DNA of 64,000 nt from Tubiluchus corallicola (lineage: Eukaryota > Animalia > Priapulida), in NCBI GenBank assembly GCA_030141605.1, contig JAQGDQ010000912.1, forward strand, positions 1 to 64,000. Direction: 5' to 3'. The position numbers and the translations under genes were made by a program. This document shows positions 31,501 to 42,455 of this stretch, in pieces. Numbering within the stretch: the first letter of the stretch is position 1; each line of letters opens with the position of its first letter. The notes under the pieces are model-generated. The model saw nothing but the letters and a program-made list of their open reading frames with translations, did no database searches and was not told the DNA's origin.

Positions 31501-34500
31501 TGCAACTACAGTAAATTGTGCTTATTGCATGAAGTTTCAAACGTTTTAATGATAAAGAATGTGCGTAGTTGAAGAGATGAATTACTCGAATCTATAATTT
31601 TAGGTTCGAATCGAATTCGAGCTAAAAAATAATTTTCGAGTCAAATTCGAACGTTCGATGCTCACCCCAAGTGTCAGTAAAACAGATTCTTATTGCACTA
31701 ACGTTACTTTAGTTACACCATAGCAGTCACACATATTTTCAAAACTGCATGTAACTATGCAATGAAATACAATGAAAGTAAAGATTAGATTCGAATCAAA
31801 TTCATATTAATTTATTCTCACTTATAACCAAGGGAGTGTTTACCAACAGACTAACTAGGTAATAGCCTAGGACGCCAGGTTTTTATGGCCCAGGGTTAAC
31901 AATTGTTTTTTTTTATAATCCTGCTAACCCGGAAATGCGTATCTTTTCATAATCATAAATGGCACTCTGCCGCATATCTTTGATTATCTTTGATCAATTT
32001 TGAAAGTGTGAAAGGGGCATTAAGTTTTTCTTTCTTATTGTTCTTTAAGGTTTGTAAAAATTTTCGAGACGCAATTCGTTATTGTTTCCACTTTTACATA
32101 AGCATCGTATAACGAGCAAGTATAGTTTGCACAACTAATGCATAAAAGATATTACATCATATCTAGTTACGCAGCGTTTTTAATCATAAGCACTGCGCAG
32201 ACGCATGTAATTACATAATCACGTAAGTACAAAGGAAACTAAGTAACTTATGATGGATATGGCCTATATGAGCGACATTGAACTAACAGCCTTAGTTCGT
32301 CACTGTATCTTCGTACCTGCTGTGCAACATGGCAAGTTTGTTTTGTTATAATATTAGCTTTACTACATGGCAAGTTTGTTTTGTTATAATTTTAGCTGTA
32401 CTACATGGCAAGTTTGTTTTGTTATAATATTAGCTGTACTACATGGCAAGTTTGTTTTGTTATAATATTAGCTGTACTACATGGCAAGTTTGTTTTGTTA
32501 TAATATTAGCTGTACTACATGGCAAGTTTGTTTTGTTATAATATTAGCTGTACTACATGGCAAGTTTGTTTTGTTATAATATTAGCTGTACTACATGGCA
32601 AGTTTGTTTTGTTATAATATAGCTGTGCTACATGGCAAGTTTGTTTTGTTATAATTTTAGCTGTACTACATGGCAAGTTTGTTTTGTTATAATATTAGCT
32701 GTGCTACATGGCAAGTTTGTTTTGTTATAATATTAGCTGTACTACATGGCAAGTTTGTTTTGTTATAATATTAGCTGTGCTACATGGCAAGTTTGTTTTG
32801 TTATAATTTTAGCTGTGCTACATGGCAAGTTTATTTTGTTATAATTTTAGCTGTGCTACATGGCAAGTTTATTTTGTTATAATTTTAGCTGTACTACATG
32901 GCAAGTTTGTTTTGTTATAATATTAGCTGTGCTACATGGCAAGTTTGTTTTGTTATAATTTTAGCTGTACTACATGGCAAGTTTGTTTTGTTATAATATT
33001 AGCTGTGCTACATGGCAAGTTTGTTTTGTTATAATTTTAGCTGTGCTACATGGCAAGTTTGTTTTGTTATAATTTTAGCTGTACTACATGGCAAGTTTTT
33101 TTTGTTATAATATTAGCTGTGCTACATGGCAAGTTTGTTTTGTTATAATATTAGCTGTGCTACATGGCAAGTTTGTTTTGTTATAATTTTAGCTGTGCTA
33201 CATGGCAAGTTTGTTTTGTTATAATATTAGCTGTGCTACATGGCAAGTTTGTTTTGTTATAATATTAGCTGTGCTACATGGCAAGTTTGTTTTGTTATAA
33301 TTTTAGCTGTGCTACATGGCAAGTTTGTTTTTTATATTGTAAGACTGTAACATTGTTGTGAAAAGTAACACAAAACCATTGTGTCTAATTACCTCAGCCT
33401 CTGTTTTTGTTAATGTGGATTCAAGGCACAGTCGTTCGTTAGCTCCCTCAACTGGACAAGTGCTGGGAGTAACGATGGTTGCAAAACCAACCAATTTTAA
33501 GAAAGGTTTGCTCCAACTGATCAGGTTGCCTTTATACCCAGAGTGGCAAGTTTTGGACAAGTCAGCTAAAATTCAAAAACACATTTTTGTTCAATTATAC
33601 TTTCTGTTGAGCTGAACTCACGCATCTTCTAAGTGAAGTGTAAGAAGCTGCTAGTGTCTTAATTTACAACAAAACTACATTTTATGTAAATAAGCAATCT
33701 GTTACATAAATAAGGTTGTACTTAAAATGCAACATAGAAATAAATTTATTTTTTACATTGTCACATACTTAAGAAATGTATAGATAGGGTTTTTGTTGCT
33801 TCTTTAATGTCCATGCAATTAGTACAGTTAAAAAAGCTTTAAAAAAATAAAAGCTTGTACCAATTTCAGCTGTTGATAGCAAGTACGTGGTCATTATGAC
33901 CTCAGTGATTGCTGTGTAACCTTGTCCAATCTTCAACAAGCCACCACCAGAAATACTGTACGATTCTAGTTTAAAACACACAATATTATATACACGAAGA
34001 AACCACTGCAAACTGTAACACAGCAGTAATAAAAAACTATTCTGCCTGTTTTTCTTTGCAAAATTTACATAATCATAGCATATAAAAAAATGAAAAGCTA
34101 TTCGACCCAAATGAGGCTTGACCGCCATGTGGACTATGTACGCAATATAGTCCAAATTAGAATTATTGTCTCACATTTAATTTGGTGCAGACCATATCAT
34201 AATTGGCCCTATCTAATCGCTTTAAATGTTCATTTGCTCTCAAAAACACTTATCAATTTTTAAGCTTTACTTTTATTGTACCATTTAGATTGAATTTAAT
34301 TACAATAACAAACTTGTTGTGCTAATTGTTTCTTAATTAGTCTGTGCAAAGCACAAAGATAAGTTTTACGTATTCCAATAGTGTATATCACCTATAAAGA
34401 TGTCTATGTCGACTATGTCTATCTACGTTCAATAACAACATGATTCATGAATAAGCATTGGAGAGCCACTAACACACACGACAAATAAGTGTATATAAGT

Positions 34501-42455: not shown

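Follow-up and report, generated by a model that had tools for sequence, protein, structure and literature searches.

Insertions of one protein domain into another have been catalogued by ECOD group, among which we take 209.1 to be C-type lectin-like, 10.1 to be ConA/LamG-like and 10.1.1.5 to be pentraxin. The described case closest to the one reported here is human ADGRD2/GPR144 (Q7Z7M1), the likeness being two folds nested in an extracellular animal protein: a 10.1.1.5 insert lies in a 209.1.1.0 host (gap 225, fit 0.98) in a survey of 48,551 insertion events that covers the PDB and selected AlphaFold proteomes, from which most invertebrates are absent (PMC13114784, 2026). In the accessible part of that survey 10.1.1.5 appears in only two events, each time inserted into a 209.1.1.0 host, the second event being A0A0R4IAT2; that Q7Z7M1 is ADGRD2 and bears a PTX-like domain is stated in the accessible part of PMC10687090. 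We analysed a stretch of 64,000 nucleotides (nt), henceforth the window (positions 1 to 64,000 of contig JAQGDQ010000912.1 of the priapulid Tubiluchus corallicola), which holds two head-to-head paralogues, gene A on the minus strand and gene B on the plus strand, each encoding a pentraxin followed by tandem C-type lectin domains (CTLDs). The pentraxin of A, and not that of B, is interrupted by two extra exons that resemble a CTLD, and we consider it probable that A encodes a nested chain in which a trimmed lectin is looped out from the pentraxin edge. The order would be the reverse of that in ADGRD2, where a pentraxin lies within a CTLD-like host and not a CTLD within a pentraxin.

ADGRD2 further differs in that no GAIN or seven-transmembrane part was seen for A or B in the window, beyond which the 3′ ends of both genes lie. 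The ADGRD2 passages of PMC10687090 and a further source do not mention the CTLD-like host domain that ECOD gives for Q7Z7M1. An ADGRD2-style arrangement of the present locus, with the A/B pentraxin itself inside a split CTLD, was rejected as the flanks are not CTLD-like. Table S2 of PMC13114784 was searched over ~35,480 rows, of which 25 contain the term 209.1.1, 29 times in total (all 19 events of 209.1.1.1, all 8 of 209.1.1.0 and two of the three of 209.1.1.4); it gave no 209.1.1.1 (Lectin_C) insert in a 10.1 host, other 209.1 subgroups not having been searched. Ten rows have a Lectin_C-group domain as the insert, in hosts that include 10.32.1.0, 2006.1.6.0 and 11.1.1.0; these inserts differ from that in A in being full-size (gaps of 130-150 residues) and in having no pentraxin-family host. 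Plasmodium Q8IK83, an LCCL-domain protein, is the sole row that combines a 209.1 insert (209.1.1.0) with a 10.1 host; it differs in that its insert has no family assignment and fills 47% of a 415-residue gap (fit 0.47) and its host is not of the pentraxin family. An earlier note on this DNA knew of no described example: we likewise found no CTLD inside a pentraxin in Table S2 or in the literature searched, which largely excludes subscription papers, and the accessible parts of PMC514892, PMC5712786, PMC13197933, PMC3178555 and PMC2246102 do not describe such nesting, but catalogues already contain CTLD inserts, LamG-type hosts and the opposite pairing.

CRP and SAP (PDB 1b09, 4pbo, 1gyk) share with the A and B pentraxins the fold, the C36-C97 disulfide and the HxCxT motif; they differ in that the calcium ligands are missing from A, whose pentraxin is broken at the Lys122/Lys123 protomer contact, and in that A and B are multidomain. 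The mannose receptor family (MRC1, LY75/DEC-205, PLA2R) has a similar tandem CTLD array in which most domains lack a canonical sugar site, and differs at the N-terminus, which is ricin plus fibronectin II in that family and a pentraxin here; a membrane anchor was not seen, and the likeness is in the array and need not mean orthology. The compact CTLD class of Zelensky and Gready, the Link modules, reportedly has a core without the long calcium/sugar loop, as does the insert in A, which differs in giving no Xlink Pfam match, in coming from a CTLD of canonical type and in seeming to lack strands b3/b4 too. The pentraxin-like domains of ADGRG4 and ADGRG6 are calcium-independent, non-pentameric and part of a large extracellular region, as we propose for A; G4-PTX differs in keeping a disordered B-face loop that is deleted in A, and an inserted domain is not described for G4 in the accessible part of the source (PMC10687090).

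Two CTLD exons in the pentraxin of gene A

The extra exons, 36114-35920 (exon a) and 34687-34559 (exon b) on the minus strand, sit in intron 3 of the A pentraxin, between the donor at 36914 and the acceptor at 33965. All junctions of the seven A exons from 41673 to 33393 are AG/GT and their joined frame is open throughout; both extra exons have lengths divisible by three (195 and 129 nt) and phases 1/1/1, matching phase 1 of the host intron. The counterpart in B is a single 454-nt phase-1 intron (51560-52013), in which tblastn gave no credible CTLD remnant (best 10 residues, E 0.013), and BLASTP of B against A gave two colinear blocks flanking the insert, A 1-121 (44%) and A 224-533 (40%). The earlier note had described the GT-AG, phase-1, frame-keeping junctions of the insert and the absence of CTLD exons in B between 51438-51559 and 52014-52160, and both descriptions hold. 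It had also spoken of two intact CTLD exons between the HLCVTY and GGGLLKIGQ exons of the pentraxin; their coordinates and open frames stand, but the domain that they encode is not intact, having 107 residues and lacking b3/b4 and the sugar site. With phase 1/1/1 at the domain borders, a fit to the host intron and absence from B, the pair has the features of a symmetric exon-shuffled module.

Exon a encodes b1, helix 1 and helix 2 with three Cys, and exon b the WIG strand, the W-x-W hairpin and the final VCE strand. The nested PF00059 (Lectin_C) match that had been expected was obtained for exon a (E 7e-4, profile positions 2-32), but exon b reached only E 0.97 (positions 39-62), and as single exons both fall below the curated cut-off. 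A CTLD profile built from the other CTLDs of the window aligns with A over residues 129-216 (E 1e-11), and when CTLD5, the fifth of the downstream CTLDs of A, is left out it still matches 142-215 (E 3e-9). As a chance control, other introns totalling 49,118 nt yielded 213 open phase-1 stretches bounded by AG and GT and with lengths divisible by three, 167 of which came from a single repeat-filled intron; scored against the CTLD profile, they peak at 4.7 bits, and exon a scores 27.9 bits. The best PDB matches of exon a are LY75 and PLA2R, and its top matches in the ESM Atlas are generic Lectin_C clusters (0.92-0.93); exon b matches mincle weakly (E 0.12). Exon b is backed by its position directly after exon a, by the WIG and W-x-W motifs and by a terminal VCEK as in CTLD5, and its G+C content is 0.48 versus 0.31 in its introns. 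A third CTLD exon was sought in the nested region and not found. The 167 GT and 167 AG sites in 33966-36913 were ranked with splice-site matrices derived from the 28 remaining modelled exons; the donors of exons a and b ranked first and second, respectively, and the acceptor of exon a second.

Between the insert and CTLD5 the proportion of synonymous differences (pS) is 0.73, near saturation, that of non-synonymous differences (pN) is 0.43, and identity at the three codon positions is 0.53/0.62/0.37, with the alignment of exon b uncertain; all four Cys and the VCEK at the end are kept, and conservation is lowest at third positions. Decay was simulated with substitutions, 10% insertions and deletions and the eight splice bases in 2000 runs per divergence level, and both exons stayed intact in 1143, 651, 116, 8, 0 and 0 of the 2000 runs at 1, 2, 5, 10, 20 and 30% neutral divergence. 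Since survival collapses with divergence in the simulation, we read the extra exons as being in use or else very recently silenced or copied. The open frames, the top-ranked donors and the saturated synonymous divergence lead us to predict that the exons are included, in which case constitutive inclusion would be somewhat favoured and cassette use somewhat disfavoured.

Several observations weigh against a nested protein. Taken alone, exon b scores 4.1 bits against the window CTLD profile, inside the chance range, and its acceptor is weak (27th of the 167 AG sites and 27th of the 29 modelled acceptors). The A pentraxin is far more degenerate than that of B (29 versus 134 bits in the profile search described below), which decay would also fit, and a recent copy from a locus beyond the window may have supplied the exons. 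In A CTLD4 (7160-6996 / 6514-6409, minus strand) there is a phase conflict, the best donor being in phase 2 and the next exon needing phase 0, for which weak phase-0 donors (7028, 7010), three candidate micro-exons or a one-base assembly error are possible causes. These points could be read together as a recently copied or silenced fragment that is skipped, or as decay of the whole of gene A, with no nested protein made; the weak acceptor at 34687, the large deletions in both domains, the low A pentraxin score, the phase problem at 6996/6514 and a frame that survives if the exons are skipped all suit such an account. We nevertheless consider it unlikely, for intact survival after silencing is plausible only below ~5% neutral divergence, the deletions are in frame and take loops while sparing the Cys and the core motifs, the donors are the strongest of the region, and 17 consecutive exons of A (41673-9647) read through 825 codons with zero stops.

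The selection signal is one of a long coding history, of the exons coding somewhere, and does not imply their joining to the pentraxin exons. It would be explained, for every exon and without a nested fold, by interleaved, mutually exclusive modules: one isoform, the pentraxin, would skip the CTLD pair, and the other would run from an upstream phase-1 exon to 36114 and from 34559 to a later phase-1 acceptor (e.g. 21140), so that the two domains never share a chain. The phases permit this, as exons 1-3 jointly and the stretch 33965-27384 jointly are multiples of three bounded by phase 1. Against it, three exons and then as many as five would have to be skipped in concert, no sign of such control is seen in the sequence and no alternative first exon was found, and we regard it as rather improbable. 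Misplacement of a piece of another CTLD gene into an intron of A during assembly, to which the abundance of tandem repeats in the window lends some colour, appears very improbable in view of the orientation, order and phase of the insert, all of which suit the host; 33393-37680 is free of tandem arrays and no duplicated block overlaps the insert.

Trimmed lectin and interrupted host of the probable nested chain

Even if the nested chain is made, the insert would be a reduced CTLD. It has 107 residues and four Cys, without an EPN/QPD or WND motif, and runs from the W-x-W hairpin nearly straight into the last strand, with ~30 residues fewer than CTLD5; b3, b4, the calcium/sugar site and the second disulfide are missing, so that it lacks what canonical carbohydrate recognition calls for. 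What is kept would be the CTLD core: b1-a1-a2-b2, the WIGL motif, the terminal b5 and the C1-C4 disulfide (Cys165/Cys232; also Cys130/Cys148). In the accessible part of PMC7618208, b3/b4 are part of the CTLD hydrophobic core, b1 and b5 bring the termini together, as the earlier note had maintained, and the long loop holds the sugar site; inserted domains generally have close termini (median 14.3 Å; PMC13114784, Fig. S2 legend). The loss of b3/b4 from the core, with the weak profile score and acceptor of exon b, would fit an unfolded or half-folded appendage with no function in itself, made from the first extra exon or from both, which a surface loop can tolerate. This we hold to be most unlikely, as the Cys pair that joins helix 1 to the last strand draws one Cys from each nested exon and both are kept, as are WIG and W-x-W. 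The lack of a canonical motif is not confined to the insert: none of the complete CTLDs of the window (1293-31164, minus strand; 58012-61078, plus strand) has a canonical EPN/QPD, CTLD5 having EPT and no second disulfide and B CTLD1 having EPQ.

The host pentraxin of A spans five exons on the minus strand: exon 1, the first identified (41555-41673, phase 1>0), which is homologous to B 49415-49539; exon 2 (37504-37637, phase 0>2), which was missing from the exon list of the earlier note; exon 3, with HLCVTY as the HxCxT motif (36914-37041, phase 2>1), matching PF13385 (Laminin_G_3) at E 8.5e-4; exon 4, with GGGLLKIGQ (33861-33965, phase 1>1); and the C-terminal exon with a Cys linker (33393-33565, phase 1>0), 53% identical to B 54736-54908. 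The pentraxin of B is uninterrupted, its five exons (49415-49539, 50936-51060, 51438-51559, 52014-52160 and 54736-54908, plus strand) having the same phases. A pentraxin hidden Markov model (HMM) was built from seven repeats from outside the window, five from P0009 and one each from P0001 and P0002. It matches B as one domain (134 bits), A with the insert in two pieces, 12-119 and 241-299 (E 2.6e-11), around the insert at 128-234, and A without the insert as one match (29 bits), in keeping with the split match that had been anticipated. P0009 is a 1040-residue protein of five tandem pentraxin domains (PF00354 x5) with ~34% identity to the B pentraxin. Among single exons, B 52014 matches Pentaxin in Pfam (E 4e-11) and A 33965 gives no match, all single A exons being under the cut-offs.

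The two halves of the A pentraxin appear, as judged from sequence, still to form a single domain, since they are conserved against B, keep all six Cys (Cys38/Cys102 align with C36/C97 of CRP) and differ from B in exon length only by multiples of three. Identity to B is 47%; the non-synonymous rates (dN) of the halves are 0.46 and 0.37 and the synonymous rates (dS) 1.39 and 1.26, giving a dN/dS of ~0.3 near saturation. We took the calcium ligands of CRP to be D60, N61, E138, Q139, D140, E147 and Q150. On that list B keeps six of the seven positions (all but E147; Asp60, Asn61, Asp/Glu138, Gln139, Asp140 and Gln150 equivalents), one as Asp for Glu, and so largely retains its calcium residues. 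In A the Asp60/Asn61 equivalents of exon 2 are gone, and in exon 4 the calcium loop that B keeps (CRP 138-155) is replaced by four residues, an in-frame loss of 14, so that A lacks the residues for calcium-dependent ligand binding of the short-pentraxin kind. Neither this loss nor that of b3/b4 and the sugar site from the insert had been seen in the earlier note, whose chimaera of two innate-recognition folds survives as a nested exon order but not as two working lectins: with both calcium/ligand sites gone, A probably does not bring together two functional lectin sites, nor is its head likely to be a classical lectin or either part to bind calcium or sugar.

By alignment through P0002 to human CRP, in which a single-sequence AlphaFold model of P0002 (pLDDT 33.7) was not used, the junction after exon 3 (donor ~CRP residue 122) falls at ~Lys122-Lys123. 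This supports the placing of the insert in a protomer-contact stretch, CRP inter-subunit bonds involving Arg116, Lys119 and Lys123-Glu197, with Lys123 at the B-face end (PMC8716467, accessible part). Because the insert would occupy the Lys123 contact, a pentameric ring is unlikely for A, as had been suggested, but this is probably not special to A, receptor pentraxin-like domains being monomeric or dimeric anyway (PMC10687090, accessible part).

The paired losses could be given a more specific meaning, that of a fused two-fold head in which the trimmed CTLD at the B-face end covers the surface exposed by loss of the calcium loop and the matched deletions make a new calcium-independent binding unit. 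Since both exons are symmetric, splicing could switch such a head on or off. We regard this as doubtful, and a linkage of the two losses by packing is speculation.

Origin of the insert

CTLD5 of gene A (6057-5872 + 1502-1293, minus strand) is the sole other two-exon, phase-1/1/1 CTLD in the window, with exon borders and four Cys as in the insert. The two are 35% identical over 101 residues (E 3e-14), the other CTLDs of the window being 19-27% identical to the insert, and the first-exon score of the nested CTLD is 105 against CTLD5 and at most 49 against the others. A motif just after the exon b donor (34534-34558, minus strand) is common to the intron after the second exon of CTLD5 (~1261-1292): intron bases 7-50 past both second exons gave the top of 435 pairwise flank comparisons (score 26 versus a 95th percentile of 16). 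The remaining three homologous intron flanks of the nested CTLD and CTLD5 showed no similarity, and within the window no near-identical source of the insert or dispersed repeat was found for 33966-36913. Phylogenetic support for the pairing is incomplete: LG+G4 trees join the nested CTLD and CTLD5 with SH-aLRT/UFBoot values of 94/84 when full domains are used and of 84/38 with first exons, and an LG+C20 tree does not resolve the grouping. The insert likely derives from a duplicated downstream module, as its identity to CTLD5, the two-exon layout and the intron motif common to both suggest, and the donor may be CTLD5 or a module of CTLD5 type outside the window. The outgroup pentraxins compared are uninterrupted, which makes gain in A more probable than loss in B.

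A and B are paralogous pentraxin-plus-CTLD-array genes, with the extra exons in A only. A two-exon module of CTLD5 type with phases 1/1/1 would have been copied by intronic recombination into the phase-1 intron 3 of A with the frame kept. Exon shuffling had been named as the likely route, and the symmetric phase-1 introns and a candidate donor type in CTLD5 uphold it; among gains of middle domains, 28 of 49 have symmetric introns on either side and 40 of 49 involve multiple exons, figures that point to intronic recombination (PMC2926785, accessible part). A site near the surface at CRP Lys123, together with the adjoining termini of a CTLD, would allow the host sandwich to close. To judge from the sequence, in-frame changes then removed b3/b4 and the sugar site of the long loop from the insert, and from the host the calcium loop and the equivalents of Asp60/Asn61. 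The N-terminal unit of A would serve, independently of calcium, as a protein-binding head or a spacer on a CTLD array like that of mannose receptors, and B would retain the ancestral calcium-dependent pentraxin site.

Surrounding genes, homologues and significance

The window, animal DNA rich in introns, is 36% G+C with zero N. Gene A runs from the exon at 41673 beyond the window start and comprises five pentraxin exons, the two extra exons and five further CTLDs, of which C1-C4 have three exons each (31164-27384, 21140-17703, 15069-11694 and 9827-6409, minus strand) and CTLD5 is that described above, the gene running past the window edge. Gene B, from 49415, has five pentraxin exons and then one CTLD and the opening exon of another (58012-62615, plus strand), colinear with C1 and C2 of A, and its nine exons give 438 codons with zero stops. 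Intron phases of the modelled A and B exons agree one to one. The divergent genes have first identified exons 7.7 kb apart (41674-49414 between them) that both begin in phase 1, and a signal-peptide exon was sought upstream of each and none could be assigned. Between them lies a single full-length 5S ribosomal RNA match (43120-43238, plus strand; Rfam RF00001, 69 bits), which could be a gene, a pseudogene or a 5S-derived short interspersed element. Introns of A contain minisatellites at 38469-40889 (36 nt x 67 copies, with a plus-strand open frame of 770 codons) and 32319-33336 (38 nt x 27 copies), and more repeat arrays lie near 24400-27400, 1800-4600 and 56800-57900. A dispersed element resembling miniature inverted-repeat transposable elements, with internal 20-21-nt repeats and inverted ends, occurs at 9970-10412, 15810-16425 and 45841-46674 (copies 74-97% identical), and another dispersed pair at 49695-50045 and, inverted, 55890-56247. 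Broken frames at ~12900-13700 (plus strand), in an intron of A, resemble in their motifs the reverse transcriptase of a long interspersed element.

Searches for homologues used single-exon protein queries of 42-64 residues, and blanks among them are weak for that reason. Searches for homologous proteins kept none of 21 candidates for exon 36114, none of five for exon 33565 and two of 17 for B exon 52014, both shark short pentraxins; the ESM Atlas gave no usable match for exon 33565. HMMER with a profile of the C-terminal pentraxin exon (exon 7) of A and B gave eight matches among 1.84 billion representatives, seven of which look repeat-driven or unrelated, the eighth being a five-pentraxin tandem protein with no Lectin_C match. 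Metagenome scans gave first none and then four short marginal matches, which were rejected as chance.

Domain insertions are mostly ancient and no longer show how they arose. In this case the host, an uninserted sister and a likely donor all lie within 64 kb, and intron phases and an intron motif are still readable, so that the locus would offer a clean case of exon shuffling nesting one extracellular domain in another, and a case that also displays later losses after nesting, those of both calcium sites. Were the fused, switchable head to be true, it would be a whole-domain cassette within the pentraxin fold, the mirror image of ADGRD2. Together with ADGRD2, the nested chain predicted for A suggests that pentraxin and CTLD folds may nest in either order, which is of relevance to protein evolution and to the biology of invertebrate receptors.

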